Source of the DNA: Streptosporangiaceae bacterium
GTDB lineage: Bacteria; Actinomycetota; Actinomycetes; Streptosporangiales; Streptosporangiaceae
DNA length: 34,479 bases
Direction of reading: 5' to 3'
Assembly: GCA_030040095.1 (NCBI GenBank)
Contig: JASHUI010000526.1
Location: 1 to 34,479, forward strand
The position numbers were made by a program, and so were the translations under genes. How positions within the stretch are numbered: the stretch's first letter is position 1; the number at the start of each line of letters is the position of its first letter. Under the pieces are notes generated by a model that saw nothing but the letters and a program-made list of their open reading frames with translations, was not told the origin of the DNA and did not search any database. Below, in pieces: positions 6,427 through 32,836 of this stretch.

Positions 6427-6445
6427 GAAGTGCCCCCCTTCGGCC

Positions 6446-18172: not shown

Positions 18173-18204
18173 GCGACACCCGGCAGCACGAAGGGAGGTG
18201 GCCG

Positions 18205-18267: not shown

Positions 18268-18432
18268 CTGGCGGGTGTCTGCACTGATTCGCCCGCCATC
18301 GCCAGGCCGCTGAGCCAGTCGCAGGCGAGGTTGCCCGCATGGCAGGCGGCGTCGCGTGGCGGGCGAGCAGGCACCAGCAAGCCGCTTGCACCGGCACGCA
18401 ACCTTTCTTGCTCATGCCTGCGTCCAAGTTAG

Positions 18433-18795
18433 ATGAGTCGCAATGCTGTGGCGGTGCTCGCGCTGGGCATCGCCGTCCTGGCCGGCTGCGGCGGCAGCCC
18501 CGGCTATCAGCAGGCCGTGCCCGGTACGTTCGTGCGAGTGGGCGGGCCGGCGCCTGGCTCCCCGGTCCCGCTGCCCGGCACGATCACAGCCCGCGCGGCG
18601 ACGGGCCAGACGTTCACGGCCACGGCCGGCCGCAACGGCCGCTTCACGCTGTCGCTGCCGCCTGGCAGCTACCATGTGACCGGCCGCAGCCCGCTGATCC
18701 AGTCCGGGCGGATGATCTGCGCCGCGACCGCGGAACTGCGCTTGACCCGCGGCAAGCCCGCTGGCCCGGTCACCGTGGTCTGCTCGATCTCGTGA
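18433..18795 (+). CDS. Lipoprotein with carboxypeptidase-regulatory-like beta-sandwich repeat
   Basis: The signal peptide plus lipobox is MSRNAVAVLALGIAVLAGC. The mature part, GRNGRFTLSLPPGSYHVTG, is typical of the CarboxypepD_reg-like fold. Confidence 0.6.
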   Translation: MSRNAVAVLALGIAVLAGCGGSPGYQQAVPGTFVRVGGPAPGSPVPLPGTITARAATGQTFTATAGRNGRFTLSLPPGSYHVTGRSPLIQSGRMICAATAELRLTRGKPAGPVTVVCSIS

Positions 18796-18899
18796 CGAGG
18801 ACGCGGCATCGGCGCCTCGGCGTCGTAGGCGGGCCGCGCGGCAGGATCCGCGCCGCCGGGGCTGTCTGATCATCAACACCTCCCTCAATGGCCGCTCAC

Positions 18900-19275
18900 G
18901 CCGCGCGGACATCTCCTAGCCGTAGAGATGGCACCGTCCTCTCGAAGAACTCGAGCCTCCGAAATTCCCAGAATGGTGTAGCGACTCATCTGGCACGGAT
19001 AGCTACAGGGATATATAATATATTTGGTTGTAATAACTTTCGATCTTGAAAGGGCCCGGCGGGTCTGCTATTGTTTCAAATGATCATTTATGGCATGGAC
19101 GACCGGACAGATCATCCCTTTTCCTCCCTTTTCCTTATGAACCGCTTCTGCATGCCCGGCGAGCTTCGAGAAAACTAACGGCCACCAATAAATCGCCAAA
19201 GGACCGACACCTGGAAATGGCCTCGATCAACGGCTCAGGTCAGAACGGCAGTGGCGAAGGCCGGGGGAAGGATTC
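18900..19275. promoter_or_regulatory. AT-rich intergenic island, presumed promoter/regulatory region of the NRPS operon
   Basis: There are 39 G+C in the 100 nt from 19001 to 19100 by hand count, against visibly >70% in flanking genes. The island contains ATATATAATATAT, a perfect 12-bp palindrome AAATGATCATTT (19078-19089) and a tandem 10-bp repeat CCCTTTTCCT x2 (19116-19135). Confidence 0.5.
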
Positions 19276-20601
19276 ATGGTGTTAAGAGAAACGACCGCGC
19301 GGGAAGCGCCGCTCGCCGGACGGCCGCAGAAGGCACTGACGCTGGCCTGCCACCGCCACGGCGTCGCCGAGCAGCCTGAGGTGCCCTGGGCCTGCCCGAC
19401 CTGCGGTTCGACCCTGCGCGCGTGCCCCGAACTCGATGAGATATCCCTGGACGTGAAGCGGCCGGACAGGCCGTACAACCTCTTTCGCTTTGACGAGTTA
19501 CTCCCCATCAGGGGTGCGGCGCGTACCGGAAAACACACCGGCTGGACACCTCTCGTTCACGCCGAAAGGCTCGGCGCAGAGTTAGGCTTACGCCGGCTCT
19601 ACCTGAAACTGGACTGCTACAACTGGCCGACCTATTCCTACAAGGACCGAGTGGTGGCCAGCGCGATCCAGCACGCGCTGGAAAACAATGCCGACACCAT
19701 TGCCTGCGTGTCGACTGGAAATGTAGGCAATTCGGTTGCCGCGCTCGCGGCGGCCGCCCACCTGAACGCGGTCATCTTCTACCCGGGTGGCATTGAGCCG
19801 ACGAAGATGCTCATGTGCCTGGTACACGGCGCATCGGTCATCCAGCTCGACGGCACCTTCGACGACGTCAACCGCGTGTGCCGCAGGCTCGCGCTGGAGA
19901 CCGAGATCCCGTTCGTCAACCTGACGCTGCGCCCTTACTACGCCGAGGGCGCCAAGACGGTCGCCTACGAGGTGATCGAGCAACTCGGCTGGGAGCAACC
20001 AGACCACGTGATCGTGCCCACCGCGGGCGCGGCCCTGCTGACCAGAATCTCGTACGGGTTCGAGGAGATGGCACGGCTCGGCCTGACCCCGGGCCGGCGG
20101 GGTCCGCGGATCCATGCCGCGCAGGCCGCGGGCTGCGCGCCCATCGCCGACGCCTTCGCGGCCGGCGAACTCATCCCCCGGCCGCGGGTGCCCGACACGG
20201 TGGCGAAGTCGATCGCGATCGGGAACCCGAGCGACGGCGCGGCCGCGCTCGCGGTGATCGCCGAGACCGGCGGCAGCGCCCTGGGCGTCGACGATCGCGT
20301 GATCATCGACGGGGTCCGGTTGCTCGCCGCCACCGAGGGCGTGTTCACCGAGCCCGCCGGCGGCGCCGCGATCGCCATGACCCGCGCTCTGGCCGAGACG
20401 GGCGCGGTCCGCCGGGACGACGCCGTGGTCGCCGTGGTCTCAGGCAGCGGGCTCAAGACCCCGGAGCTGGTTGACGACTCGTTCGGCCACGTCATCCAGG
20501 GGATCGCCGAGTTCGAGCCGGCGCTCGCCGCGCTGAGCAGGTGCCGGACGTCCGCAGGCGCCTGCGATGACCGCGCCGGGCCCGCGCGCGAGCGTCCTTA
20601 G
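19276..20601 (+). CDS. Threonine synthase-like fold-type II PLP enzyme with N-terminal zinc-ribbon
   Basis: The N-terminal motif is CHRH...CPTC. The PLP-lysine motif is PTYSYKDR, with TGNVGNSVAALAAAAHL, and the glycine-rich phosphate loop is VVSGSGLKT. The ATG is preceded by GGGGGAAGGA. Confidence 0.85.
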   Translation: MVLRETTAREAPLAGRPQKALTLACHRHGVAEQPEVPWACPTCGSTLRACPELDEISLDVKRPDRPYNLFRFDELLPIRGAARTGKHTGWTPLVHAERLGAELGLRRLYLKLDCYNWPTYSYKDRVVASAIQHALENNADTIACVSTGNVGNSVAALAAAAHLNAVIFYPGGIEPTKMLMCLVHGASVIQLDGTFDDVNRVCRRLALETEIPFVNLTLRPYYAEGAKTVAYEVIEQLGWEQPDHVIVPTAGAALLTRISYGFEEMARLGLTPGRRGPRIHAAQAAGCAPIADAFAAGELIPRPRVPDTVAKSIAIGNPSDGAAALAVIAETGGSALGVDDRVIIDGVRLLAATEGVFTEPAGGAAIAMTRALAETGAVRRDDAVVAVVSGSGLKTPELVDDSFGHVIQGIAEFEPALAALSRCRTSAGACDDRAGPARERP

Positions 20602-20651
20602 CCCGGTCCCGGCCGTCAAGACCCAACCATCTCGGCGCAAACGGAGAACAC

Positions 20652-21998
20652 ATGACAAACGGTGGCGTCCCAGGCGAGCGTGAGGCCCTGCTGCTCCAGG
20701 CCCTGATCCGGAACGAGTGCGTGAACTACGGCTATGACAATCCCGAGTCGGGCAGGGAAATCCGTAACGCCACGGTGCTCGCCGACTTCCTGAGCGGCAC
20801 GCCGCACTTCACGAGCCGGCTCGTCGAGACCGTCCCCGGGCGGACCAACGTGATCGGCCGCTGGGAGGGCGACGGCGACGGCCCGACTCTCGCCCTCCTC
20901 GCGCACACCGACGTCGTCCCCGCCGACCCGGCCGGCTGGGACGTGCACCCGTTCGCGGGCGAGATCCGCGACGGCGTGGTCTACGGCCGCGGCGCGGTGG
21001 ACATGCTCAACCTCGCCGCCAGCATGGCCGTGTCAGTGAGGACGCTGGCCATGTCCGGCTTCCGCCCTCGGGGGACGGTGCTCTACCTCGCCGTCGCCGA
21101 CGAGGAGGCCGGAGGGCGGTACGGCACCGGCTACCTGACCAGCGAGCTCGCGGACGAGGTCCGCGCCGACTATGTGCTGACCGAATGGGGCGGCGTGCGC
21201 TACCGTGCCTCGGCCGCGCCGCAGTTTGCCATGATCACGGCCGAGAAGGGCGTCGCGTGGATCAAGGCGCGGATCATCGGTCGCTCTGCGCACGGGTCCC
21301 GCCCGTACGGCGCGGACAACCCGATCATCGGCCTGGCGCGCATCGTCAATCACCTGGCCGGGTCCAGCGCGAGCGTGACCGTCACGCCGGTGTGGCGGCG
21401 GCTGGTGGCCCGGCTGGACGTCGACGAGGCCACCCGGGAGGCGCTGCTGGATCCCAGCCAGGTCGACGAGATCCTCCCGGAACTCGACTCGCCGTTCGAC
21501 GCGTTCGCCCACGCGCTCACCCGGATGACGTTCTCACCGACCATGACGGACGCGGGCATCAAGGTCAACGTCATTCCCGACGGAGCCGAGCTGCAACTGG
21601 ATGTGCGAACCCTGCCGGGCCAGACCACCGACCAGGTGCTCGCCATGCTGCGGGAGACGGCTGCGCAGCTGAACGTCAACGCCACCTTCGAGGCATTCAA
21701 CGAATCGGTGGCCAACTCCTCGTCCATCGAGACACCCCTGTGGACCGCGATGGAGAAGGCCGTCGCCAAGCTGGTTCCCGGCGGGACCTGCGTGCCGTCG
21801 GTGACGACGGGCGGCAACGACGCACGCTTCTACCGGGCCATGGACGCGGTCGCCTACGGCGGCGGGCTGCTCAGCGAGCGGTTCACGTTCGACACCTTCA
21901 TTAGCGCCTTCCACGGTGCCAACGAACGGATCGATCTCGAGTCGCTCGCGCTGTCCACGGAGTTCTTCAGCTCGATCATCACCGACCTGCTCGCCTGA
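20652..21998 (+). CDS. M20/M25/M40 family metallohydrolase (dipeptidase / N-acyl-amino-acid deacylase type)
   Basis: LLAHTDVVPADPAGW and LAVADEEAGG are the His/Asp and Glu metal/catalytic motifs, and a dimerisation-lid insertion is present. GGAG SD. Confidence 0.88.
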   Translation: MTNGGVPGEREALLLQALIRNECVNYGYDNPESGREIRNATVLADFLSGTPHFTSRLVETVPGRTNVIGRWEGDGDGPTLALLAHTDVVPADPAGWDVHPFAGEIRDGVVYGRGAVDMLNLAASMAVSVRTLAMSGFRPRGTVLYLAVADEEAGGRYGTGYLTSELADEVRADYVLTEWGGVRYRASAAPQFAMITAEKGVAWIKARIIGRSAHGSRPYGADNPIIGLARIVNHLAGSSASVTVTPVWRRLVARLDVDEATREALLDPSQVDEILPELDSPFDAFAHALTRMTFSPTMTDAGIKVNVIPDGAELQLDVRTLPGQTTDQVLAMLRETAAQLNVNATFEAFNESVANSSSIETPLWTAMEKAVAKLVPGGTCVPSVTTGGNDARFYRAMDAVAYGGGLLSERFTFDTFISAFHGANERIDLESLALSTEFFSSIITDLLA

Positions 21999-22001
21999 CC
22001 A

Positions 22002-22520
22002 ATGACCGAGCCGAGAGCGGACACGCTGATCAGATCCCCCCGCGAGCAGGACCTGGACCGGCTCGTCTCGATCTACAACGAGGCCGTGGAGGACGGCGTG
22101 TCCAACTGTGACCTGTCCGAGGTGACCGAGGCGCAGTTCGCCGACTGGCTGGGCCTGCACCAGGGCCGGTTTCCGCTGTTCGTCGCGGAGATCGAGGCAG
22201 AGGTAGCCGGCTGGGCATGCCTGTCGCCGTTCGTGCCGAAGGACTGCTTCGACCGGACCGCCTACACCTCGACCTACGTCAGCAAGCGGTTCCGGCACCG
22301 CGGCGTCGGGCTGGCGCTCCGCGAGCACGTCGTCGCGCAGGCCCGCGCGCTGGGGTTCCACAGCCTGGTCAACCGGATCTTCACCAGGAACACCGCCAGC
22401 GTGGCGCTGACCGAAAGGCTCGGATTCGTGCGGATAGGCCTGCTCCGCGAGGTGATCTGGCGGGACGGCGAGTACTGGGATGCCGCGCTATACCAGCTGA
22501 TTCTGACCCCGAAGGGATAG
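22002..22520 (+). CDS. GNAT N-acetyltransferase of the phosphinothricin / methionine-sulfoximine acetyltransferase (PAT/Bar/MddA) family
   Basis: The following are all shared with the PAT family as I know it: IRSPREQDLDRLVSIYNEAV, PLFVAEIEAEVAGWACLSPF, the RTAYTSTYVSKRFRHRGVGLAL (AcCoA loop), NTASVALTERLGF and the GEYWDAALYQLIL tail. Confidence 0.78.
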   Translation: MTEPRADTLIRSPREQDLDRLVSIYNEAVEDGVSNCDLSEVTEAQFADWLGLHQGRFPLFVAEIEAEVAGWACLSPFVPKDCFDRTAYTSTYVSKRFRHRGVGLALREHVVAQARALGFHSLVNRIFTRNTASVALTERLGFVRIGLLREVIWRDGEYWDAALYQLILTPKG

Positions 22521-22524
22521 AGGG

Positions 22525-23541
22525 ATGGCCTTCATCGAGACCCTGACGCCGACGCCAACGCAGATGGAAGCGGCCTACCTGGAGTACCGGCGCGCGTGCT
22601 CCATGATCCTTTGGCGCCACGCCGGCGCCCGCGATGTGCTCGACGCGCTCCAGCAGCCGAAGTCGGCCTCGGAGCTGTCGGAGGCGATGGGCTTTCGCCC
22701 GGAGAAGCTCGAGCTCGTCGAGCTGATGCTGAAGGCGCTGGCCCGGTTCGGAGCGATCGAGCAAGTCGACGGCGGCCGCTACCGCGCGGTGCCCGGCTTC
22801 CAGCCCGCTGACATCGACCGGGATCTCCTGCCGGTCGCGATCAGCGCGCAGGAACTCGAGGGCCTGATGCACAGCGACACCTTCTCGGGCATGGTCGACA
22901 CGCTCCAGCTGCAGGAGAACGTCGCCGCGGCGCCGTTCAGCGCCAACCACATGAAGGTGTGGACGGAGTTCTTCAGCCAGCCCTTCTACGAGTACTTCCG
23001 GCGCGCCTCGGTCGACGCGGTGGCCTATCCGGGTGCGTCGGTGCTCGACCTCGGCTGCGGGCCCGGCTTCGGGCTCGGCGAGCTCGCCGCGGCCGTGGGC
23101 CCCGAGGGCTTCGTGACCGGCGTCGAGGTGAGCCAGGACTTCATCGAGGAGGCCAGACGGCGGACCGCCGGCCTCGAGCACGTGGCCGTGTTCGCCGGGA
23201 ACCTCGACGACGGCCTGCCCGCCGAGGTCAGCGCGGGCCCGTTCGACGGGGCGATCCTGGTGGGGGCCATGCACTTCTTGCACCACCACGACGTGGTGTT
23301 CGGGGCCATCGCGCGGGCGCTGCGTCCGGGCGGCCGGCTCAGCATCTCCTACGCCTACCTGAACCGCGGCACCCCGGACCAGGAGCTGATGGACATGCGG
23401 TTCGCGTTCCGCGAGCCGCGGCCGGCGGCGATCGACGCCGACGCGCTGATCGCGTCGGCGCGGAGGAACGGCCTGCTCCTGCGGGACCGGTTCGGGCTCG
23501 GCTGCTTCGGCTGGTTCCTGTTCGAACGAGAGGGTTCATGA
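22525..23541 (+). CDS. Class I SAM-dependent methyltransferase with N-terminal winged-helix/dimerisation domain
   Basis: Motif I is SVLDLGCGPGFGLGELA and the post-I acidic residue lies in VTGVEVS. The N-terminal 150 aa resemble small-molecule O/N-methyltransferase dimerisation domains. The stop overlaps the next start (ATGA, 23538-23541). Confidence 0.85.
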   Translation: MAFIETLTPTPTQMEAAYLEYRRACSMILWRHAGARDVLDALQQPKSASELSEAMGFRPEKLELVELMLKALARFGAIEQVDGGRYRAVPGFQPADIDRDLLPVAISAQELEGLMHSDTFSGMVDTLQLQENVAAAPFSANHMKVWTEFFSQPFYEYFRRASVDAVAYPGASVLDLGCGPGFGLGELAAAVGPEGFVTGVEVSQDFIEEARRRTAGLEHVAVFAGNLDDGLPAEVSAGPFDGAILVGAMHFLHHHDVVFGAIARALRPGGRLSISYAYLNRGTPDQELMDMRFAFREPRPAAIDADALIASARRNGLLLRDRFGLGCFGWFLFEREGS

Positions 23542-24419
23542 TGACAACGACAGACCTGGAGCTCATCGACCTGAACGAGGAACAGCGCGCGTCGTTCAGG
23601 GAACGCGGCTACTGCGTGGTGCGCGAGGCGCTCGACGGGGAGGCGGTCGAGCGGATCCGCGCCGTGTGCGACCGGATCGCTGACGAGGGCGGGCCGCGCG
23701 GGCGTTACATCGACCCGCGTTACGAGGACAAGCTCGAGTACCGCGACATCGTCTCGCTCGACCCGGTCTTCCGCCAGGTCATGGTGAATCCGCGGGTCTT
23801 CCCGCTGATCGCCCGCCTGCTCGGTCCCAACCTGCACCTCATCAGCAGTCACTTCATCTATAAGATGTCCCGGCCGCCGTCGGGCATCCGCCGCCGCGGC
23901 ATGTGGCATCGCGACGTGCTCGGCGTGACCCATGACCTGGGCCCGGCGGGCGTGCCCATGATGTCGGTCCGGGCCGGCTACTACCTCACCCCCGTGGACG
24001 AGGTCAACTCGGGCATCACGCTGTTCTCGCCCGGCAGCCACCTGCTCGAAGAGCCGCTGGTCGCGGATCCGGACAACGACGACCCCGCGGCCATCATCCG
24101 GCCGCCGGTGGCCCCCGGTGACGCGCTGATCTGGGAGAACCGGACCTACCACGCGGTGGAGGAGAATACGAGCGGCCGAACCCGCAAGGCCCTGATGTTC
24201 CAGTACGCGTTCCGGTGGCTGCGCCCGTTCGACTACATCTCGCATTCGTCGGAGGTCCTGGCCGACTGCGATGCCGTCCAGCGCCAGCTGCTCGCCGCGC
24301 ACGATGTCACCGAGGACGGCTCGATCGCGCGGGCCACCGGCGGGGAGGCGATCCGGGAGTTGTACGACGAGCAGCACATCTCCTGGGACCCGCGCCGGTA
24401 TCCCGGGCAGGCCCGGTGA
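23538..24419 (+). CDS. Phytanoyl-CoA dioxygenase (PhyH) family Fe(II)/2-oxoglutarate oxygenase
   Basis: MWHRDV gives the HxD facial-triad residues (an Asp is present, so a hydroxylase rather than halogenase type). The distal His is in RTYHAVEEN. The N-terminal FRERGYCVVREAL is typical of PhyH. The stop overlaps the NRPS GTG (GTGA, 24416-24419). Confidence 0.85.
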   Translation: MMTTTDLELIDLNEEQRASFRERGYCVVREALDGEAVERIRAVCDRIADEGGPRGRYIDPRYEDKLEYRDIVSLDPVFRQVMVNPRVFPLIARLLGPNLHLISSHFIYKMSRPPSGIRRRGMWHRDVLGVTHDLGPAGVPMMSVRAGYYLTPVDEVNSGITLFSPGSHLLEEPLVADPDNDDPAAIIRPPVAPGDALIWENRTYHAVEENTSGRTRKALMFQYAFRWLRPFDYISHSSEVLADCDAVQRQLLAAHDVTEDGSIARATGGEAIRELYDEQHISWDPRRYPGQAR

Positions 24420-26227
24420 CCAGCAGCACCACCATGGGCCATCCGGCGCCGCCGGCCGTGTCGGCAGCGACCGTCCCGGCGCTGTTCGCGCGGCGGGTCC
24501 GCCGCGATCCGGACTCGGTCGCCGTCGACGCGGCCGAAGGCCAGGTAAGCGCCCGCGAACTCGACGAGCTGTCCGACCGGCTGGCCGCGCGGCTCGCCGC
24601 CGCCGGCGTCGGGCCGGAGGTGCTCGTCGGGATCTGCGCCGAACGGGGGGTGCGGCTCATCGTGGGCCTGCTCGCCATCCTGAAGGCGGGCGGCGCCTAC
24701 GTCCCGCTCGATCCCGGGTACCCGGCGCCGCGGCTTGCCTTCATGCTGGCCGACGCGCGGCCGCGGGTCATGCTGACCGAACGGGCGCTGCGCGGCGTGC
24801 TTCCGGCGGACGAACGCGTGCCCGTGATCGAGCTGGAGGCGGCGGACGAGGACGCCGCGAACGCGCCGGCCAGTGCGGTGTCCGCGGACAACCTCGCCTA
24901 TGTGATGTACACGTCGGGCACCACCGGTCGCCCGAAGGGCGTCGGTGTCACCCACCGCGGCATCGTCCGGCTGGTGGAGAACCCGAACTACGTCCGGCTC
25001 GACCCCGCCGAGTCCGTGTTGCAGTACGCGCCGATCTCCTTCGACGCGTCCACCTTCGAGATCTGGGGCGCGCTGCTGAACGGCTGTCGCCTCGTGATGG
25101 CCCCGCCCGGCATAGGCTCGGCCGACGAGCTGGGCGAGATCATCGAGGCGAAGGCGGTGACCACCCTATGGCTGACCGCGCCGCTGTTCCATCTCCTGGT
25201 CGAACAGCGGCCAGGGTGCCTGCGCGGCGTGCGCCAGCTTCTCGCGGGCGGAGACGTCGTCTCGCCGGCCCACGCGGCCCGCGCGCTCGCGGTGTCCGAC
25301 GGCCTGACCGTCATCAACGGGTACGGTCCGACGGAGACGACGACGTTCGCGTGCTGCCACCCGATGCACGGCGGGGTCGATGCGACCGCTCCGCTGCCCA
25401 TCGGCAGGCCGATCTCCGCGACCGACGCGCACATCCTCGACGAGGATCTGGCGCCGGTGCCCGACGGCGTGGCGGGCGAGCTCTATGTCGGAGGGGCAGG
25501 GCTGGCGCGCGGGTACCTGAACCAGCCGGGGACGACCGCGGAACGCTTCCTGCCGGACCCGGTGAGCGAGGCTCCCGGCGCCCGGATCTACCGGACCGGC
25601 GACCGAGCCCGCCGCCGCGACGACGGCACCGTCGAATTCCTCGGGCGGGCCGACCGGCAGGTCAAGATCCGCGGCTTCCGGGTTGAGCCCGCCGAGGTCG
25701 AGACCGTCATCACCGGGCACGACGCCGTCGGCCAGTGCGTGGTCGTGCCCTGGGACCGCGGCGGTGAACGGACGCTGGTCGCGTACGTGGTGCTGCGGTC
25801 TGCTGTTGACGTGGCGACGGAGCTACGGGAGTTCGTCGCCGCGCGGGTGCCTGACCACCTGGTCCCCGCGCGGTTCGTCACCGTCCCCGGGCTGCCTCTC
25901 GACGTCAACGGCAAGATCGACCGCGCTGCGCTGCCCGCGCCGTCGGAGAGCGGCCCCGCCGGCGCCTACGTCGCGCCCGCGACGGCGCTCGAACGGCTGG
26001 TCGCCGACATCTGGATGGCGGTGCTGGGGCTCGACCGGGCCGGCGTCGAGGATAGCTTCGTGGACGCGGGCGGCGACTCCCTCGCCGCGGCGAGAATCGT
26101 GGCCCGTCTCCGGCGGACGCTCGGGCTGGGGTTCTCTGTCGACATGATTCTCCAGGCGGCGACGATCCGCCGGCTCGCCGCCGACATCGAGGCGCGGATG
26201 TCTGCCTCGCTCGACGCCGACGCATGA
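24416..26227 (+). CDS. NRPS initiation module, A-T (adenylation + peptidyl carrier protein)
   Basis: Adenylation cores present are LKAGGAYVPLD, YVMYTSGTTGRPKGV, FDASTFE, NGYGPTE, GELYVGGAGLARGY, YRTGD and GKIDR. The carrier motif is GGDSL. The hand-extracted Stachelhaus code DAFWLGGTFK is close to Val codes. There is no C, E or TE domain. Confidence 0.93.
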   Translation: MTSSTTMGHPAPPAVSAATVPALFARRVRRDPDSVAVDAAEGQVSARELDELSDRLAARLAAAGVGPEVLVGICAERGVRLIVGLLAILKAGGAYVPLDPGYPAPRLAFMLADARPRVMLTERALRGVLPADERVPVIELEAADEDAANAPASAVSADNLAYVMYTSGTTGRPKGVGVTHRGIVRLVENPNYVRLDPAESVLQYAPISFDASTFEIWGALLNGCRLVMAPPGIGSADELGEIIEAKAVTTLWLTAPLFHLLVEQRPGCLRGVRQLLAGGDVVSPAHAARALAVSDGLTVINGYGPTETTTFACCHPMHGGVDATAPLPIGRPISATDAHILDEDLAPVPDGVAGELYVGGAGLARGYLNQPGTTAERFLPDPVSEAPGARIYRTGDRARRRDDGTVEFLGRADRQVKIRGFRVEPAEVETVITGHDAVGQCVVVPWDRGGERTLVAYVVLRSAVDVATELREFVAARVPDHLVPARFVTVPGLPLDVNGKIDRAALPAPSESGPAGAYVAPATALERLVADIWMAVLGLDRAGVEDSFVDAGGDSLAAARIVARLRRTLGLGFSVDMILQAATIRRLAADIEARMSASLDADA

Positions 26228-26240
26228 GGGAGGGCCCCCG

Positions 26241-29200
26241 ATGACCGCGGAACCTCGAGGCGGCCAGGCCCACGACGAGCTGCTCGAACGGTGGCTGCGG
26301 AGCGGTCGCGCCGACGCGGAGCGGATCTCGCCGCGCCCCGGCGCAGGTCCGGCGGAGGCATCGCTCAGCCAGCGCCGCCTGTGGCTGGTCGATAAGCTGG
26401 AGCCGGGCAACGCGGCGTACAACATCCACGAGGCGCTGCGCATCCGCGGCCCGCTCGACACCGGGGCGCTGCGGCGGAGCATCGCCGTCATCGTCGACCG
26501 GCACGCGACCCTGCGGACCACGCTCCGGCCGGACGGCGACCGGCTGGTCCAGCACATCGCGGGCCCGGGCCGGTTCGAGGTGCCACTGGTCGACCTGACC
26601 ACGTCGGCGAGCAAGGCCGGGGACGCGGCCGTGCACGCGCTCGCCACGGCGGAGGCGGGCGCGCCCTTCGACCTGGCGGCCGGCCCGCTGTTCCGGGCGC
26701 GCCTGCTGCGGCTGGGCGACGACGACCACGTACTGCTGCTGACGACCCATCACACGATGTCGGACGGTGTGTCGGTGGTGCTGTTCAAGGCGGAGCTGGC
26801 CGAGCTTTACGAGGCCGCGGTCCTGGGGCGCCGCCCGGTCCTGCCCGACCTGCCGATCCAGTACGCGGACTTCGCCGTGTGGCAGCGCGACTGGCTCCGG
26901 GGCGAGCGGCTCGAGCGGCTGCTCGACTACTGGCGCGCCCATCTGCGCGGCCTGCCTCCCGTCATCGAGCTGCCGACCGACCGGCCGCGCCCGCCCGAGG
27001 CGAGCCCGGCGGGCCGGCGCCTCTGGTTCGACGTCGACAGCGGGACGGCCGAGCGCATGCGCGCCTTCAGCCGCGGCGAGGGCGTCACGTTGTTCACCAC
27101 CGCGTTCGCCGCGTACGTGACCCTGCTGCACCGGTACTGCGGGAGCACCGACATCGCCGTGGGCACGGTCGTGGCGAACCGGGACCGGGTGGAGATCGAG
27201 AACCTCATCGGGTTCTTCGTCAACACGCTGGCGGTGCGCTGCGACTGCTCCGGCGATCCCTCGTTCCGCGAGCTGGTCGCGCGGGTGAACACGACGCTGG
27301 CCGGCGCGCACGCGCATCAGGACCTGCCGTTCGAGCTGCTGGTCGAGGAGCTGCGGCCGGAGCGGAGCACCGGCCACTCGCCGGTGTTCCAGGTAATATT
27401 CGCGTTCCAGGAGCGGGGCACGGACACCGGCGGCGCACTGCACGGGCTCGACGTCGAAGAGCTCAGGATCGACAACCGCACCGCCGCCTTCGACCTCGCG
27501 TTCTCGCTGGAGGAGCGGGACGACGGCTCGATCGCGGGCTGGCTGACCTACGCCACCGCGCTGTTCGACGAGGTCAGCGTGCGGCGGCTGGTGGGCCATT
27601 TCCTGATGCTCGTCCGGGAGACGGCCGCCTGCCCTGACGCCAGGCTCAGCGAGTTCCCCCTGTTGCCCGCCGAGGAACGCGACAAGGTGCTGCTGGACTG
27701 GAACCGGACCCGATGCGACTACCCGCGGGGGGCGCGGATCCAGGATCTCGTCGACGCGCGGGCCGCGCTGTCGCCGGACAAGCCGGCGGTGGTCTCCGAC
27801 ACGGCCAGTCTCACCTTCGCCGAGCTGGTCATCCGGGCGAACCAGCTCGCGCACTTCCTGCAACACCGCGGGGTGGGCCCGGAGACACCCGTCGCGCTGC
27901 TGACCGAGCGTACCGTCGACATGGCAGTCGCCCAGCTGGGCGTGCTCAAGGCGGGCGGCGGGTACGTACCGCTCGACCCGGCGTACCCGGCGGCGCGCCT
28001 GGCTTACATCCTGCGCGACACCGGCACCCGCATCATCCTGACCGAGTCCTCCGTCGCGGCGACCGTGCCGGCCGGTGACTACGAGGTGGTGGTGCTGGAC
28101 CAGCAGTGGCCGCAGATCGCCAAGGAGCCGCAGACGGCGCCGCCGACCACGGCGACCGATGCCAACCTGGCCCAGATCTACTACACCTCGGGGTCGACCG
28201 GAGAGCCGAAGGGGGTCCTGCTCAGCCACGAGGGCTGGTCGAACATCATCGCCTGGCACGGCCGCTACTTCGGCGTGACGCCACGCGACCGCGCCGCGCA
28301 GGTGGGCGCCGTCGCTTTCGACGCCTGCGCCTGGGAGCTGTGGACCAACCTCGTCGCGGGAGCGACCGTGTGCATCCCCGCCGAGGAGGTGCGGGTGTCG
28401 GCGGAGAAGCTGGTGGAGTGGATGGCCCAGCAGGAGATCACCGTCTCCTGGGTGCCCGCGGTACTCGCCGAGCAGATCCTGGACCTGCCGCTGCCGGGCA
28501 AGCTCAGGCTGCGCTGGCTGGCCTCGGGCGGCGACCGGCTGCGGCGGCGGCCCGGGCGGCGGCTGCCGTTCCGGTTCTTCAACATGTACGGGCCCACCGA
28601 GATCACGATCATGCGCACCTGCGGGCCGGTGCGCCCGGACGGCCGTGACCTGCCGCCGATCGGGTACCCGATCTCCAACAGCGAGCTCTACGTGCTCGAC
28701 CGCTGGGGTAACCCGGTGCCGCCCGGCCTGCCCGGAGAGCTGTACATCGGCGGGGTGGGGCTGGCGCGCGGGTACCTCGGGCGGCCCGGCCAGAGCGCCG
28801 AGAAGTTCGTCCCCGACCCGTTCTCGGGACGGGCCGGCGCCAGGCTGTACCGGACCGGCGACATCGTCCGGCACGACCCGGACGGCGCGATCGCCTTCAT
28901 CGGGCGCACCGACCATCAGGTGAAGATCCGGGGCTTCCGGGTCGAGCTCGGGGAGATCGAGGCGGTACTGGAGAAGCATCCCGGCGTCGCCAGATGCTGC
29001 GTCGTCCGGCACGACCGGCCCGGCGGCGACGCGCGGATCGTCGCCTACGTGGTCGCCGCGGACGGCGGGGTGGACGCCGCCGAGCTGAGCGACGCGGTGG
29101 CCGAGCAGCTGCCCGGTTACATGGTGCCCTCATCGTTCATCTTCCAGGAGGCCTTGCCGATAGGCGCGTTCGGAAAGGTCGACCGCACCGCCCTGCCGGA

Positions 29201-29462
29201 CCCGGACGAGGCGGAGAGATCGGCGGGCGACGCGCCGCAGACCGCCACCGAGCGTGCGCTGAGCCGGATCTGGGCCGAGATCCTCGAGGTGCCCGAGGTC
29301 GGCGTGACCGTGAACTTCTTCGCCCTCGGCGGGAACTCCCTGCTCGCCACGAAGGTGGTCGCGCGGATGCGGAAAGAGTTTCCGCAGGAGATTCCGCTGC
29401 GCAGGCTGTTCCTCGCCCCGACCATCCGTCGGCTCGCCGCGTGGCTCGATCGCCCCGCCTGA
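26241..29462 (+). CDS. NRPS elongation module, C-A-T, without a terminal release domain
   Basis: The C domain has LSQRRLWLVDKL (LCL-type C1) and HHTMSDGVS (HHxxxDG). A cores are YYTSGSTGEPKGV, FDACAWE, NMYGPTE, GELYIGGVGLARGY, YRTGD and GKVDR. The carrier motif is GGNSL. The hand-extracted code DAWWAGMIMK is not one I recognise. Confidence 0.95.
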   Translation: MTAEPRGGQAHDELLERWLRSGRADAERISPRPGAGPAEASLSQRRLWLVDKLEPGNAAYNIHEALRIRGPLDTGALRRSIAVIVDRHATLRTTLRPDGDRLVQHIAGPGRFEVPLVDLTTSASKAGDAAVHALATAEAGAPFDLAAGPLFRARLLRLGDDDHVLLLTTHHTMSDGVSVVLFKAELAELYEAAVLGRRPVLPDLPIQYADFAVWQRDWLRGERLERLLDYWRAHLRGLPPVIELPTDRPRPPEASPAGRRLWFDVDSGTAERMRAFSRGEGVTLFTTAFAAYVTLLHRYCGSTDIAVGTVVANRDRVEIENLIGFFVNTLAVRCDCSGDPSFRELVARVNTTLAGAHAHQDLPFELLVEELRPERSTGHSPVFQVIFAFQERGTDTGGALHGLDVEELRIDNRTAAFDLAFSLEERDDGSIAGWLTYATALFDEVSVRRLVGHFLMLVRETAACPDARLSEFPLLPAEERDKVLLDWNRTRCDYPRGARIQDLVDARAALSPDKPAVVSDTASLTFAELVIRANQLAHFLQHRGVGPETPVALLTERTVDMAVAQLGVLKAGGGYVPLDPAYPAARLAYILRDTGTRIILTESSVAATVPAGDYEVVVLDQQWPQIAKEPQTAPPTTATDANLAQIYYTSGSTGEPKGVLLSHEGWSNIIAWHGRYFGVTPRDRAAQVGAVAFDACAWELWTNLVAGATVCIPAEEVRVSAEKLVEWMAQQEITVSWVPAVLAEQILDLPLPGKLRLRWLASGGDRLRRRPGRRLPFRFFNMYGPTEITIMRTCGPVRPDGRDLPPIGYPISNSELYVLDRWGNPVPPGLPGELYIGGVGLARGYLGRPGQSAEKFVPDPFSGRAGARLYRTGDIVRHDPDGAIAFIGRTDHQVKIRGFRVELGEIEAVLEKHPGVARCCVVRHDRPGGDARIVAYVVAADGGVDAAELSDAVAEQLPGYMVPSSFIFQEALPIGAFGKVDRTALPDPDEAERSAGDAPQTATERALSRIWAEILEVPEVGVTVNFFALGGNSLLATKVVARMRKEFPQEIPLRRLFLAPTIRRLAAWLDRPA

Positions 29463-29484
29463 TGGCCGCGCGAGAGGAGAGACG

Positions 29485-30234
29485 ATGAGGAGCGACTGGC
29501 TGCGGTGCCAGAAACCACGGCCGGAGCCGTCGGTGCGTATGATATGTGCGGCCCACTCCGGCGGCGCGGCGTCGATGTTCGGGAAATGGCACGAGCACCT
29601 GCCGGAGAACATCGAGGTCTGGGCCGTCCAGTCACCGGGCCGGGAGGACCGCTTCACGGACCCGCCGGTGGGCAGCATCGACGCGATCGTCGATGCCATC
29701 GGGCCGGACGTCATGACGCTGGGACGCGACGCCGAGCTCGTACTGCTCGGGAACTGCCTGGGGGCCCTGGTGATGTACGAGCTCACGCGCTGGCTGCGCG
29801 ACCGGGGCGCCCTGGACCCGAGACTGCTCGTGGTCGCGGCGCATCCGGCGCCGCCGCTCACGGACCCGCCCGCCGACCCGCCGTTCCATCAGCGGCCTGA
29901 CGCGGAGCTGGTCCGGGAGGTCGGCAAGTGGGCGGGGGTGGACCCGGAGCTGACCCGCGATCCCGAGATCCAGGAACTGCTGGTGCCGGCGTTCCGGGCG
30001 GACGCCCAGGCGCATGAGACCTACCGGCACCGGCCAGGAGAGCCGTTCAGCTGCGACATCCTCACCGTCGGTGGCCTTGACGACGCGGACGTGCCGCAGG
30101 ATGCACTGCGCGCGTGGTCCGGGGAGACCCTCGGCAATTTCACCCTGAGAATGTTCACCGGGGGCCACCTCTTCATGCTCACCGAGTACGCCGGGCTCCT
30201 GTCGTTGATCTGTCAGTTGCTCGCCATCGAGTGA
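29485..30234 (+). CDS. Standalone type II-like thioesterase with Cys in the nucleophile position (GNCLG)
   Basis: 249 aa with an alpha/beta-hydrolase TEII layout: MICAAHSGGAASMF..., WAVQSPGRE, the nucleophile elbow LLGNCLGAL (TGC at 29755-29757, Cys91) and the C-terminal FTGGHLFML His motif. Strong SD (GAGAGGAGAG). Confidence 0.88.
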   Translation: MRSDWLRCQKPRPEPSVRMICAAHSGGAASMFGKWHEHLPENIEVWAVQSPGREDRFTDPPVGSIDAIVDAIGPDVMTLGRDAELVLLGNCLGALVMYELTRWLRDRGALDPRLLVVAAHPAPPLTDPPADPPFHQRPDAELVREVGKWAGVDPELTRDPEIQELLVPAFRADAQAHETYRHRPGEPFSCDILTVGGLDDADVPQDALRAWSGETLGNFTLRMFTGGHLFMLTEYAGLLSLICQLLAIE

Positions 30235-30283
30235 GCGCCCGGCCCTGGGCTGCGTGACCTCTCGATCCGGCACAGGAGAGCGC

Positions 30284-31552
30284 ATGGAGAAGGCGGGATC
30301 GCCAGCCCTTCTGGGGCCGAGTACGCCCGGATTCTCCTGGAAGCGGCTGCTCTGGCGGCTGCTGGGAGATCGCGTCGAAGACGACCTGCTCGCCTACATG
30401 GCGATGCTGTTCATGGCGGTGGCCTCGCAATACGCCGTGATAGCCATCTTCCCCATCTGGGCGGTCTCCCGGTTGGCAACTTCGAGCGCCACCGTCGGGC
30501 TGGGCTTCGCCGTCGGCGGGGCGCTCGCCGCCCTGGCGGCTCCGCTCGGCGGCCGGGTCTCGGACCGGATCGGGCGGCGCCGGGTCATCATGGCCGGCCT
30601 GCTGGCCACCACCGCCGCGCCGCTGCTGCTCGTGGGACCCGTGCCCGGCCCGGTGATCGGGCTGGGCGTGTACGTGGTCTGCTGCGTGGGCGTGGCCGTA
30701 CGGTGGGCCGCGCAGCAGGCCCTCGTCGGCGACCTCGTCGCGCGGTCGGGACGGGAGCAGGGCTTCGCCGCGGTGCGCGTGGCGTACAACGCCGGCGCCG
30801 GCGTGGGCCCGCTTCTCGCCTCCGTTCTGGTGCTCCTCGACTTCCGGGCCGTGTTCGTCGCGGCCTCCGCGCTCTCGGTGGGCGCGCTGCTCTTCCTGCG
30901 GGCGGTGCCCGACCCGCGCCGGGCGAAGGCGGCCGACCTGACGTCCAGGCCCCGCGCATGGACCCTGCTGAGTTCGCCCGCGATGATGCTCGCGATTCTG
31001 GCCAGCCTGTTTGCCTGGTGCGTGTACCAGGCCTTCGAGTTGCTGCTGCCGATCTCGCTCACCAAGTCGCACGGGTATCCGCCGTACGCCTGGGGGCTGC
31101 TGTTCGCCATCAACCCCCTTCTCGTCACGGTGTTCCAGGTCAGGGTCGTGCGATGGACGTCGGCCATTCCCCGCTACATCAAGCTCTCAGGGGCCTGCCT
31201 GCTGATGGGGCTGCCGTTCCTCATCGTGCCGGCCGACGCCGCCGTGCCGCTGATCGCGCTGCTGCTGGTGCTGTTCACCCTGGGCGAGATGTCGTTCGGC
31301 CCGGTGAATCAGGCGATGATCACCGACATCGCCCCGCCCGACCTGCGCGGCGCCGCCATGGGCCTGCTCGCCGCGACCAGCTCGGTCTCGGTCGCGCTGA
31401 CGCCCGCGTTCGGGCTGGGCGTCCGTTCCGCCTGGGGCGACAGCGCGATGTGGTTCGTGATCGCCGGGTTGAGCGTGACCGCCGCGGCGCTGTTCTTCGG
31501 TCTCACCCGGAAGATAACCGCCGCCACGGTGGACGAGGCCGCCGACAGCTAG
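30284..31552 (+). CDS. MFS transporter (probable product exporter)
   Basis: About 12 predicted hydrophobic spans. The MFS loop 2-3 motif is GGRVSDRIGRRRV. It is the last gene of the operon. The ATG at 30284 is preferred over the GTG at 30254. Confidence 0.9.
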   Translation: MEKAGSPALLGPSTPGFSWKRLLWRLLGDRVEDDLLAYMAMLFMAVASQYAVIAIFPIWAVSRLATSSATVGLGFAVGGALAALAAPLGGRVSDRIGRRRVIMAGLLATTAAPLLLVGPVPGPVIGLGVYVVCCVGVAVRWAAQQALVGDLVARSGREQGFAAVRVAYNAGAGVGPLLASVLVLLDFRAVFVAASALSVGALLFLRAVPDPRRAKAADLTSRPRAWTLLSSPAMMLAILASLFAWCVYQAFELLLPISLTKSHGYPPYAWGLLFAINPLLVTVFQVRVVRWTSAIPRYIKLSGACLLMGLPFLIVPADAAVPLIALLLVLFTLGEMSFGPVNQAMITDIAPPDLRGAAMGLLAATSSVSVALTPAFGLGVRSAWGDSAMWFVIAGLSVTAAALFFGLTRKITAATVDEAADS

Positions 31553-31584
31553 TGCCCCATCTGCCCGGTCCGCGCGGCCGGGAA

Positions 31585-31647
31585 TGTTCACCGGACGTTT
31601 CGCGGACGATCGGGTGGAGTTGGGCCGACGGGGTTAAGGTTCGCGCC
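31585..31647 (+). repeat. Conserved 63-nt leader, copy A (upstream of PH-domain gene A)
   Basis: It aligns without gaps to 32157-32219 with 48/63 identical positions (hand alignment). The core block is ACGATCGGGTGG-GTTGG, and both copies end exactly at the ATG. Confidence 0.6.
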
Positions 31648-32130
31648 ATGCCATGGGCTCCAGGATGGCCCCCGGTTACCTTCAAGCCGGTGCAGTACCG
31701 TCGCGGTTCGCAGGTGCTCGGCGGGATAGGCGCCGTGGCAGGCGGCATTGGCGCGATCGCTTTCGCCAGGAAGGACGGGGCGTTCCTCGCCGTCGTTGGC
31801 GTTCTCCTGGTCGTGTTCGGCGTGGTGTCCCTGGTCGGCCGGCGCGGGCAGACCACGATCGACGGCCGGGGCCTCTACGCGTCGTCGCCGTTCGGCCGGC
31901 ACTCGTGCCAGTGGTCCGAGGTCGCCGGCATCCGCCTGGATGTCAACGACAAGGGCGAGGATCCGGTGGTATCCACGATCAAGATTGACCTGCATGGCGG
32001 GCGGACGTTCACCTTGCCGGTGCCCAGGGACCACGAGCATGGCAGCCACCACGACAACCCGGATTTCCCTCGTCAGCTTGCCACGATCCGCCGTTACTGG
32101 CAGGAGAACGGCGGTCCTGTCCAGCCATAG
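31648..32130 (+). CDS. Membrane-anchored bacterial PH-domain protein, paralog A
   Basis: 160 aa. Two hydrophobic helices (GGIGAVAGGIGAIAF, AFLAVVGVLLVVFGVVSLV) are followed by TIDGRGLYASSPFGRHSCQWSEVAGIRL...GGRTFTLPVP...HDNPDFPRQLATIRRYW, the pattern of bPH (low-molecular-weight-antigen-like) domains. Confidence 0.6.
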   Translation: MPWAPGWPPVTFKPVQYRRGSQVLGGIGAVAGGIGAIAFARKDGAFLAVVGVLLVVFGVVSLVGRRGQTTIDGRGLYASSPFGRHSCQWSEVAGIRLDVNDKGEDPVVSTIKIDLHGGRTFTLPVPRDHEHGSHHDNPDFPRQLATIRRYWQENGGPVQP

Positions 32131-32156
32131 TGAACCCGGGCCCTTTCCTGCGGTGC

Positions 32157-32219
32157 TGTTCACGGGGCGTTCCGGGCACGATCGGGTGGCGTTGGCCCGG
32201 CGGAGTTAGCGTGTGCGTT
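32157..32219 (+). repeat. Conserved 63-nt leader, copy B (upstream of PH-domain gene B)
   Basis: See copy A. It has the same length, the same distance to the ATG and 76% identity. Confidence 0.6.
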
Positions 32220-32765: not shown

Positions 32766-32789
32766 CGATCAGCCATCCCTCTCGCGGAC

Positions 32790-32823: not shown

Positions 32824-32836
32824 AGACGCCGACCTT

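Follow-up and report, generated by a model that had tools for sequence, protein, structure and literature searches.

A compact nine-gene operon from a Streptosporangiaceae bacterium that probably encodes a nonribosomal dipeptide of valine and an unusual amino acid

A 34,479-nucleotide stretch of DNA from a Streptosporangiaceae bacterium (GenBank assembly GCA_030040095.1, contig JASHUI010000526.1; the whole stretch is referred to here as the window) carries nine consecutive genes, g1 to g9, built around a small nonribosomal peptide synthetase (NRPS). Our analysis indicates that this operon most likely (with a probability of roughly 0.55) makes, protects and exports a dipeptide of valine and an unusual amino acid, designated X; our best reading of the product is L-Val-L-X, with X a neutral, methylated and oxidized amino acid derived from serine or homoserine. 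We infer the chemistry, the order of the steps and the bioactivity of the product as follows. The first NRPS protein, g6 (adenylation and carrier domains, A-T), would load L-Val, and the second, g7 (an LCL-type condensation domain followed by A and T domains, C-A-T), would load the nonproteinogenic X, expected to be neutral, hydrophobic and about the size of leucine or methionine, and form L-Val-L-X on its own carrier domain. The carbon-heteroatom skeleton of X would be built from activated serine or homoserine by g1, a pyridoxal phosphate (PLP) enzyme resembling threonine synthase (ThrC); X would be methylated by the S-adenosylmethionine (SAM) methyltransferase g4 and hydroxylated or desaturated by g5, a translationally coupled Fe(II)/2-oxoglutarate oxygenase of the PhyH family. 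The GNAT acetyltransferase g3 and the M20 hydrolase g2 may shield X or its precursor with an N-acetyl group and later remove that group, or may confer immunity. The Cys nucleophile of the thioesterase g8 would take over the dipeptide by transthioesterification and release it by hydrolysis or by cyclization onto a side-chain hydroxyl, the MFS pump g9 would export it, and the product would act as a peptide-delivered amino-acid antimetabolite.

The nine genes (Table 1) are consecutive open reading frames (ORFs) on the + strand between positions 19276 and 31552. At the G+C content of the window (approximately 70%) raw ORF lists are noisy, and coding frames were picked by third-position GC content (GC3), which is 0.87-0.94 for these frames. 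The GC3 frames and Pfam matches bear out the nine-gene operon, with the families and gene order, that an earlier note on this DNA had proposed, and all catalytic motifs of the operon enzymes, read from translations and alignments, are intact. The tight spacing with two overlaps described in that note was likewise recovered: the junctions from g1 to g9 measure 50, 3, 4, -4, -4, 13, 22 and 19 nucleotides, the negative values being the overlaps of g5 with the stop of g4 (ATGA) and with the start of g6 (GTGA). Shine-Dalgarno-like purine runs precede most starts. The start of g5 may lie at 23538 or at 23541, and g9 more probably begins at the ATG at 30284, which is preceded by an AGGAGAG ribosome-binding site and is the start annotated on identical public contigs, than at 30254. 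The spacer upstream of g1 (18913-19275) is AT-rich, with GC dipping to about 60%, and sigma-70-like sites in the 15 kb from 18100 to 33000 are confined to the promoter-like region listed in Table 1 (3 observed versus 0.6 expected). No convincing internal terminator was found within the operon, and these signals point to an operon with a single promoter. A leader RNA ahead of g1 was considered and rejected, given that Rfam matched no riboswitch or leader anywhere in the window (gathering thresholds) and gave no credible match within 18800-19400. The genes that the earlier note had declared missing were indeed not found: the window holds no MbtH-like gene (tblastn with three MbtH proteins as queries) and no Sfp-type phosphopantetheinyl transferase motif, and no phosphoenolpyruvate (PEP) mutase family occurs among the window ORFs scanned, so that the operon does not qualify as a phosphonate or phosphinate cluster.

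Both NRPS proteins have the landmarks of a modular, type A assembly line: adenylation-domain cores (NGYGPTE in g6, NMYGPTE in g7), the lysine K517 recovered by alignment, and carrier-domain motifs (GGDSL in g6, GGNSL in g7). The condensation domain of g7 carries LSQRRLWLV, RHATLRT, HHTMSDG, YADFAVW and IGFFVNT, to be compared with the motifs characteristic of LCL domains, namely SxAQxR(L/M)(W/Y)xL, RHExLRT, MHHxISDG, YxD(F/Y)AVW and (I/V)GxFVNT; by these motifs it is of LCL type. Pfam detected no epimerization domain in g6 or g7. The L,L-dipeptide predicted earlier is thus the stereochemistry to be expected.

A GrsA-PheA fragment served as reference for reading the specificity codes, with the K517 landmark and the alignment to the A domains of the window behaving properly. 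For g6 the code read by eye from FDASTF, TTLWL, LLAGGD and NGYGPTETTTF is DAFWLGGTFK, the canonical Val code, in agreement with the Val-like N-terminal residue proposed previously. The same code was extracted automatically for module 1 of two close relatives of the operon (L093 and L094, below), a more distant relative (L011) has the related aliphatic code DALFLGCTFK, and the automated extraction from the window itself, DAFWLGGCCK, is a gap-placement artifact. Module 2 (g7) has the code DAWWAGMIMK, identical in four of the five versions of the module (window, L093, L011 and L096), the proteins being 59-91% identical; the reading from L094, DAWWRRMIMK, is likely an artifact of gap placement or alignment. 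We know of no assigned substrate for this code. None of the specificity residues at its side-chain positions (W, W, A, G, M, I, M) is acidic, basic or hydrogen-bonding, and the pocket appears most like a Leu-type one, suggesting that X is neutral, medium-sized and hydrophobic. A conserved code of this kind fits the unusual C-terminal residue that had been predicted. Because the A domain of module 2 co-occurs in rearranged clusters with orthologs of the methyltransferase, oxygenase, GNAT and thioesterase, it is also plausible, as had been suggested, that X is made or tailored by the accessory genes.

The sequence of the window is identical in two metagenome-assembled genomes (MAGs; GCA_030041615.1 and GCA_030050085.1) and in two read-archive assemblies, and related loci were found on metagenomic contigs, four of which carry the unit with different flanks. 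Two of these (L093, approximately 91% identity; L094, approximately 85%) hold all nine genes in unchanged order beside different neighbors. In a third (L008, approximately 75%) a BTAD/NB-ARC regulator comes first and is followed by the PLP enzyme, M20 and GNAT genes. In L011 the order is PLP enzyme, M20 hydrolase, methyltransferase, PhyH oxygenase, a fused A-T-C-A-T protein, GNAT, thioesterase and MFS transporter. L096 represents a larger hybrid of NRPS and polyketide synthase (PKS), in which PLP enzyme, M20, methyltransferase and PhyH genes face genes for MFS, thioesterase, MbtH, GNAT, C-A-T, ketosynthase-T and a second C-A-T. The MFS gene is kept in L011, L093, L094 and L096. Recurrence of the gene set on independent contigs with different flanks indicates more than chance; the nine functions travel together, and we place the boundaries of the unit at g1 and g9. 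Neighboring genes were considered as further members, upstream those for the radical-SAM proteins, the ABC transporter and the AMP ligase and downstream the LuxR-hydrolase gene, and were rejected because the flanks differ in L093, L094, L011 and L008.

Parts of the unit differ in how closely they are conserved. By tblastn, the orthologs in L011 and L096 match those of the window at 62-64% identity for the methyltransferase, 73-74% for the PhyH oxygenase, 59-62% for the C-A-T module, 44-47% for the GNAT and 46% for the thioesterase. The ThrC-like enzyme (45-47%) and the M20 hydrolase (25%) of these two loci are not orthologous to g1 and g2, and their M20 protein belongs to a different, dipeptidase-type subfamily. 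On these comparisons the conserved core is the methyltransferase, oxygenase, GNAT and module 2, joined by the thioesterase, and the ThrC-like and M20 genes are exchangeable parts.

Outside these loci the oxygenase is very rare. A scan of 185,579 species-representative genomes returned only distant relatives of g5 (at most 46% identity, in other phyla and contexts), a scan of JGI metagenome contigs returned one further g5-related fragment (3.4 kb), and no g5 ortholog was found in a plasmid collection or in cultured strains among the relatives retrieved. Literature on ThrC-like genes in clusters, on PAT-type acetyltransferases with NRPSs and on routes to glutamine-synthetase inhibitors (part of which is crowded by papers on human THNSL) yielded no cluster with this gene set, in line with the earlier note, whose author could not match it to a known cluster.

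That g1 is ThrC-like, as first noticed, is borne out by its match to the thrC equivalog model TIGR00260 (238.3 bits, cut-off 167.1) and by its best PDB matches, which are genuine threonine synthases (160-175 bits); against PRK08197, whose subfamily shares the N-terminal Cys-rich segment, it scores 234 bits, below the cut-off of 303. The PLP lysine, K123 in SYKDR, aligns with K61 of the Thermus thermophilus threonine synthase. Compared with 87 relatives at about 47% identity, presumed to be housekeeping enzymes, g1 departs at near-invariant sites (D112L, S114C, V115Y, H117W, N217T, G252A, T253A, P256T and F/Y322A). Around the PLP lysine, KDDSVNHPT.SYKDR of the relatives becomes KLDCYNWP(S/T)YSYKDR in g1 and its close relatives, the Asn loop changes from CASTGNL to CVSTGNV, and the phosphate loop from AGGTLLP to AGAALLT. 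The ThrC-like genes of L011 and L096 form a separate clade and share the departures in the Asn and phosphate loops. The M20 hydrolase g2 has its metal-binding and catalytic motifs (AHTD, GAVD, DEE and FHG); its nearest NCBIfam model is PRK07906, followed by the ArgE/DapE deacylase family.

A g1-type clade (60-61% identity, with the KLDCYNWP signature) also occurs in NRPS clusters of cultured actinomycetes. In Actinomadura madurae (CP094266; L005) the ThrC-like gene lies with genes for a methyltransferase, an enoyl-CoA hydratase, A and peptidyl-carrier proteins and a flavin halogenase, and in Streptomyces griseoviridis (L006 and L007) with PhyH, GHMP kinase, a second PALP, ATP-grasp and a fumarate-lyase-family enzyme. 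We draw no inference about the function of g1 from these relatives, since the NRPS clusters are unrelated and the adjacent A-T code of S. griseoviridis is polar (DIHNITHV-K).

An unlikely alternative is that g1 does not build X at all and is instead a drug-insensitive second threonine synthase conferring self-resistance, or a supplier of precursor, with X made by g4 and g5 from a common amino acid; as a resistance gene it would imply a warhead that inhibits threonine synthase or another PLP enzyme. Such target duplication has reportedly been proposed for the ThrC homolog of the rhizocticin cluster. The passing score against the thrC equivalog, with the PLP lysine and most invariant residues kept, agrees with this alternative, as does the clustering of the substitutions in substrate- and phosphate-binding loops, where a resistant variant might be altered; that L011 and L096 use a ThrC from another clade would suggest that any ThrC may serve, and close relatives of g1 sit in the unrelated clusters of A. 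madurae and S. griseoviridis. Against it, both ThrC clades of these clusters share departures from the housekeeping enzymes (C-V-STGN-V-GN and AGA.L.TR), the operon opens with g1, and in two further loci the PLP enzyme is SbnA-like or CGS-like, for which a shared biosynthetic step is a simpler explanation than three resistant targets.

In those two loci a g4-type methyltransferase and a PAT-like GNAT with conserved Cys recur, at 40-48% identity and outside any NRPS, beside an M20 hydrolase of the dipeptidase type and a PLP enzyme that comes from another family. In one, Amycolatopsis samaneae (L095, 6618-11029), the PLP enzyme is SbnA/CysK-like and no NRPS lies nearby; in the other, a Nitrospirae MAG (L097, 770-6466), it resembles cystathionine gamma-synthase and methionine gamma-lyase (CGS/MGL-like) and an amino-acid permease is also present. 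Judged by its genes, this four-gene cassette appears to be an uncharacterized small pathway of its own. Activated serine or homoserine is the substrate on which the ThrC-, SbnA/CysK- and CGS/MGL-like families all carry out replacement or elimination, at the beta or gamma position, and their interchangeability around the methyltransferase, GNAT and M20 genes argues that the PLP step is biosynthetic and acts on such a substrate. The simplest common denominator suggested by the gene neighborhoods is a shared pathway of PLP-dependent replacement, N-acetylation, methylation and deacylation, to which the NRPS versions would add the PhyH oxygenase and module 2; the cassette pattern is also why we retain the idea of N-acetyl protection and deprotection.

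The same recurrence, with a PLP enzyme that may be MGL/CGS-like or CysK/SbnA-like, could be read as a thiomethyl shunt, in which a Cys adduct is trimmed by an M20 dipeptidase and cleaved by a PLP C-S lyase, g4 methylates the sulfur, and the GNAT gives mercapturate-like N-acetyl intermediates, leaving a methylthio group. A logic of this kind is known from gliotoxin and lincomycin biosynthesis, and the Met- and Trp-rich pocket of the module 2 A domain would suit it. We nevertheless consider this route very doubtful: no ThrC-family enzyme is known to act as a C-S lyase, a transferase for glutathione or mycothiol is missing, g2 is of the deacylase-like PRK07906 type and not of the dipeptidase type, and there is no direct sign of sulfur.

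The two tailoring enzymes assigned to X in the dipeptide pathway belong to small families. In the methyltransferase g4 the N-terminal 160 or so residues form a well-conserved helical domain, and its full-length relatives number 17 among 5.8 billion proteins. Its AlphaFold2 model (pLDDT 92) gives the PKS-type C-methyltransferases CurJ C-MT, 8hd2 and AprA MT2 as best whole-chain Foldseek matches (TM 0.63-0.68) and also resembles small-molecule O-, S- and C-methyltransferases. The best PDB match by sequence is CysG (E-value 1.5e-9), the similarity being limited to the generic SAM-binding core, and the same core accounts for ArsM-like matches over stretches of about 50-115 residues (best 45.6 bits versus a cut-off of 263).

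The oxygenase g5 has the facial triad H123-R-D125 plus H204, invariant in 17 relatives. Halogenases carry H-x-A/G, and the invariant H-x-D of g5 therefore indicates an enzyme of the hydroxylase or desaturase type and not a halogenase; the triad rules out a SyrB2/SyrB1-like halogenation, which the position of a PhyH gene directly upstream of a stand-alone A-T had led us to consider. Twenty relatives with E<1e-10 were found among 5.8 billion proteins, all with generic names only, and the fold of the AlphaFold2 model (pLDDT 81) matches the natural-product oxygenases TlxJ, OkaE, SptF, AsqJ and SnoK. The next-nearest relatives of g5, at 44-48% identity, occur in Solirubrobacterales-type MAGs (L009 and L010), where they accompany RraA-like, isocitrate/isopropylmalate-dehydrogenase-like and D-Ala-D-Ala-ligase-like genes and no NRPS. 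The overlaps joining g4, g5 and g6 are consistent with a coupled pair for oxidation and methylation working near the assembly line, by analogy with SulO and SulP, an oxygenase and methyltransferase pair that installs a methoxy group (PMC11298585).

The acetyltransferase g3 has ArsN1a and the phosphinothricin acetyltransferase as its best NCBIfam matches, all below cut-off (ArsN1a, 105.7 bits against 170; phosphinothricin acetyltransferase, 93.1 against 300; ArsN1b, 73.2 against 210), and PAT-family matches in the PDB at about 76 bits. We aligned it with Bar, PA4866 and YwnH and noted departures common to eight cluster-type GNATs. The conserved Glu of the T-A-E motif (E88 of Bar, which we take to be the catalytic Glu) is Tyr in g3 (TAY), and is Tyr, Gly, Ala or Ser across the cluster-type GNATs. 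In ArsN1, Arg75-x-Arg77 forms the substrate gate (PMC6465285); this gate is absent from g3, in which RAR is replaced by VPK..FDR. The substrate loops of the eight GNATs instead hold a conserved Cys and hydrophobic residues (NCDLS and K.CF.RT). By this alignment g3 therefore belongs to a distinct subfamily with a pocket not made for oxyanions. The Cys of NCDLS replaces a Phe that contacts the methyl group of arsinothricin and phosphinothricin, and conserved Cys residues are also seen in the g4 family (C25 in EYRRAC, invariant; C327 in GCFG, kept in more than 90% of relatives). In both families these positions are likely to face the substrate, and the residues could reflect a thiophilic substrate, a covalent acetyl-Cys mechanism or a plain hydrophobic pocket.

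These features bear on the alternative that X is a glutamate analog of the phosphinothricin, arsinothricin or methionine-sulfoximine class, with g3 as PAT-type immunity and the operon as a non-phosphonate counterpart of bialaphos. Its appeal lies in the ArsN1a and PAT-family matches of g3, in the weak matches of g4 to arsenite methyltransferase, in the arrangement of split A-T, C-A-T and free thioesterase with an acetyltransferase and a deacylase, recalling phosphinothricin-tripeptide assembly, and in the fact that PLP-dependent gamma-replacement on activated homoserine could in principle give 2-amino-4-(X)-butanoates. We regard it as highly improbable. Not only does g3 fall below both equivalog cut-offs and lack the catalytic Glu and the oxyanion-binding Arg-x-Arg gate, but its hydrophobic loops agree with the hydrophobic pocket of module 2, which argues against an X of any of these types; the pocket has no basic residue and no charged or polar specificity residue at all, making a phosphinate-, arsinate- or sulfoximine-type substrate unlikely to be loaded. 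The window has no PEP mutase, no ars gene occurs among the ORFs scanned, and the ArsM-like matches of g4 are confined to its generic core. A phosphinothricin-like warhead is thus unlikely on sequence grounds; of the echo of phosphinothricin-tripeptide assembly heard in the earlier note, the architecture stands and the identity of g3 as a PAT acetyltransferase does not.

Because the NRPS ends in a T domain, g8 is the only candidate for release of the product. It is homologous to the type II thioesterase RifR over its full length (134 bits, residues 4-246), with the His of GGH present, and differs from it in the nucleophile: the translation confirms GNCLG in place of GHSMG, the Cys aligning with the RifR Ser, so that the Ser of the GHSxG motif typical of RifR-like enzymes is lacking. 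The Cys is kept in the orthologs of L093, L094 and L011. Among the best 150 relatives (50%-identity representatives from a library of 1.8 billion proteins) 130 have Ser and 19 have Cys at this position, most of the Cys cases being the leading domain of a tandem thioesterase didomain with which a large PKS protein ends. In the closest of these (P0192, P0194, P0196, P0198 and P0200 among others) domain one has GHCLG and domain two Asp or Asn (GHDxG), an arrangement that we do not recognize as characterized.

A Cys nucleophile in GXCXG is shared with two ring-forming thioesterases: that of ObiF, which makes the beta-lactone of obafluorin and has a RifR-like triad (PMC6668435), and that of SulM, which closes the beta-lactam of sulfazecin and has a Gln-Cys-Asn motif, a cationic pocket and a partner sulfotransferase (PMC11298585). 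This raises the possibility, tentative at present, that the product is a strained-ring electrophile cyclized at its C-terminus (a beta- or gamma-lactone) that inhibits an enzyme covalently. The ring would be closed by g8 on release, as in obafluorin, after beta-hydroxylation of X by g5 or provision of a beta-hydroxy amino acid by g1. In every cluster variant X is C-terminal, next to the Cys-type thioesterase; the Cys is a minority trait that the orthologs keep; ThrC chemistry gives beta-hydroxy amino acids; and CysG, the best PDB match of g4, is the methyltransferase of a cryptic-methylation route to beta-lactone peptides. Several observations oppose such a ring closure. The similarity of g8 to the ObiF1 thioesterase amounts to 23.7 bits, versus 134 to the hydrolytic editing enzyme RifR; its motif is N-C-L where SulM has Q-C-N, and the operon has no sulfotransferase; the A-domain pocket lacks the Asn or His typical of recognition of Thr or beta-hydroxy residues; many of the Cys-type relatives are PKS tandem domains of uncharacterized chemistry; and the resemblance of g4 to CysG does not extend beyond the generic core. 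Release as a lactone is compatible with most of the model that we prefer.

Combining these elements, the methyltransferase-GNAT-M20-PLP cassette might represent a new route to a warhead, by beta- or gamma-replacement and methylation under an N-acetyl group, with Val-X released as a strained lactone. We think it improbable that the whole of this holds; if it did, the operon would offer a new chemotype of antimetabolite or covalent inhibitor and the first ring-forming free-standing type II thioesterase.

Our preferred reading is a Val-X dipeptide; its conjectural role as a Trojan-horse antimetabolite, put forward in the earlier note, would fit an architecture that pairs a proteinogenic residue with an odd C-terminal one and includes an exporter and an acetyltransferase. 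Several points weigh against our reading. The operon is known from sequence alone, its product, transcript and enzyme activities being deduced. An LCL condensation domain needs a free amine on X, so an N-acetyl group cannot last until loading, which makes the roles given to g3 and g2 speculative. The description of X as neutral and hydrophobic comes solely from the chemistry of the code residues, and the structural matches of the g4 model would fit O, S or C methylation alike. The passing TIGR00260 score means that g1 may be a mere maker of threonine or a resistant copy of a target, and its nonorthologous replacement in L011 and L096 implies that it has not co-evolved with the core genes. Lastly, the link to the cassettes of A. 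samaneae and the Nitrospirae MAG consists of two proteins at 40-48% identity and of gene neighborhood.

The flanks of the operon contain further genes. Upstream lies a separate group (9657-13979 on the - strand; 14129-16734 and 16841-18172 on the + strand) with a HemN/HemZ-like radical-SAM protein (398 residues), a B12-binding radical-SAM protein (677 residues) and two proteins of 236 and 107 residues without a family; next come an ABC-2 exporter, composed of one ATPase and two permeases, and an AMP ligase resembling PaaK/DVU_1553. The B12-binding protein has weak matches, all far below cut-offs, to ApyD, an enzyme for peptides made ribosomally and modified post-translationally (RiPPs), to RiPP C-methyltransferases and to the PhpK P-methyltransferase family (66.9 bits, cut-off 600; weak and generic). 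This group has the look of another biosynthetic locus, possibly of a RiPP-like kind, and is not kept beside the NRPS operon in L094, L011 or L008. An ORF of 120 residues with a weak CarboxypepD_reg-like match (18433-18795, + strand) separates the AMP-ligase gene from the AT-rich promoter region and is annotated as a gene on the identical public contigs. Eleven kb upstream, metY (O-acetylhomoserine sulfhydrylase, TIGR01326, 619 bits) and metX (homoserine O-acetyltransferase, 482 bits) are adjacent at 5089-7801 on the - strand; they are probably housekeeping genes of homoserine-activating primary metabolism, relevant if X derives from homoserine. At 32993-34348 (+ strand), 1.4 kb downstream of g9, an alpha/beta-hydrolase domain is fused to a C-terminal LuxR/GerE helix-turn-helix in a protein of 451 residues, which could be a regulator. 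L093 has a different downstream flank, with an FAD-linked oxidase followed by a leucyl-tRNA-synthetase-like gene.

Table 1. Features of the operon and its upstream region (positions in the window)
Feature	Coordinates	Strand	Evidence
Promoter-like region upstream of g1	18990-19074	+	Sigma-70-like sites
g1, ThrC-family PLP enzyme with N-terminal Cys-rich Zn-ribbon-like segment	19276-20601	+	PALP, 231 bits
g2, M20 metallohydrolase, putative N-acyl-amino-acid deacylase/dipeptidase	20652-21998	+	Peptidase_M20 and M20_dimer
g3, GNAT with PAT/ArsN1-like fold, distinct subfamily	22002-22520	+	GNAT (Pfam)
g4, class I SAM methyltransferase	22525-23541	+	Methyltransf_25/31/12/11
g5, PhyH-family Fe(II)/2-oxoglutarate oxygenase	23538-24419	+	PhyH, 69.9 bits
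g6, NRPS loading module A-T	24416-26227	+	AMP-binding, AMP-binding_C, PP-binding
g7, NRPS module C-A-T	26241-29462	+	Condensation, AMP-binding, AMP-binding_C, PP-binding
g8, free RifR-like type II thioesterase with Cys nucleophile	29485-30234	+	Thioesterase (Pfam)
g8 Cys91 codon	29755-29757	+	GNCLG
g9, MFS transporter, putative exporter	30254-31552	+	MFS_1, 135 bits

Bialaphos, rhizocticin, bacilysin and tabtoxin exemplify small peptide-delivered amino-acid antimetabolites, a class that has yielded herbicides and antibiotic leads, with new enzymology in each case. Orphan NRPS clusters are common, and if the product proves to be an ordinary hydrolyzed dipeptide with a modestly modified residue, the operon will be one more of them. 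It belongs with the small NRPS clusters whose predicted peptide contains a nonproteinogenic residue, although several of its component features are unusual, and we regard it as promising, if unproven, as a lead to a new antimetabolite. Four oddities stand out: a conserved A-domain code without an assigned substrate, a ThrC-family enzyme that has diverged, a PAT-like GNAT in which the canonical catalytic residues are missing and a type II thioesterase with a Cys nucleophile. The unit was found only in uncultured bacteria (no oxygenase ortholog above 46% identity in the 185,579 genomes), and its product is therefore very unlikely to have been isolated before; a compact 12.3 kb under one predicted promoter would suit synthesis and heterologous expression.

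Among known systems, that of phosphinothricin tripeptide (bialaphos) comprises PhsA/B/C, Pat/Bar, a deacetylase and type II thioesterases. The operon resembles it in its split A-T and C-A-T proteins without a terminal release domain, its free RifR-like thioesterase, the presence of an acetyltransferase of PAT-like fold and a deacylase in the cluster, and a small peptide with one nonproteinogenic residue. It differs in having no genes for a C-P bond and two modules instead of three; the unusual residue of phosphinothricin tripeptide is N-terminal and N-acetylated, whereas X would be C-terminal; and g3 lacks the PAT catalytic Glu and Arg residues, g4 is a class I SAM enzyme and not a B12 radical-SAM P-methyltransferase, and g8 has a Cys nucleophile.

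With rhizocticin, bacilysin and the Pseudomonas toxin AMB (methoxyvinylglycine) the predicted product would share a proteinogenic N-terminal residue, a nonproteinogenic C-terminal one and a dedicated exporter; the rhizocticin cluster also has a ThrC homolog, and AMB combines a small NRPS with Fe/2-oxoglutarate oxygenases and O-methylation. Rhizocticin and bacilysin, however, are made by ATP-grasp ligases with other warhead pathways, AMB arises from Glu through the action of two TauD-type oxygenases on the assembly line and is trimmed from a tripeptide, and none of the three has the GNAT-M20-methyltransferase cassette or a Cys-type type II thioesterase.

The likeness to ObiF and SulM lies in the Cys nucleophile of GxCxG, in the RifR-like triad of ObiF and, by prediction, in a C-terminal nonproteinogenic residue made by a PLP enzyme, and sulfazecin in addition has a nonheme iron oxygenase and a methyltransferase (SulO and SulP; PMC11298585). 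The differences are that g8 is a free-standing type II homolog and that the operon has no Gln-Cys-Asn motif, sulfotransferase or aryl starter, so that ring formation is a candidate reaction only. Finally, cystargolide and belactosin offer a parallel in a Val-containing dipeptide and in a SAM methyltransferase (CysG) that, with a hydrolase, protects and deprotects around warhead formation (PMC11427300, PMC10776993); these two, in contrast to the operon described here, are assembled independently of an NRPS, by an amide-bond synthetase and an ATP-grasp enzyme, with a warhead derived from isopropylmalate (PMC11427300, PMC10776993).

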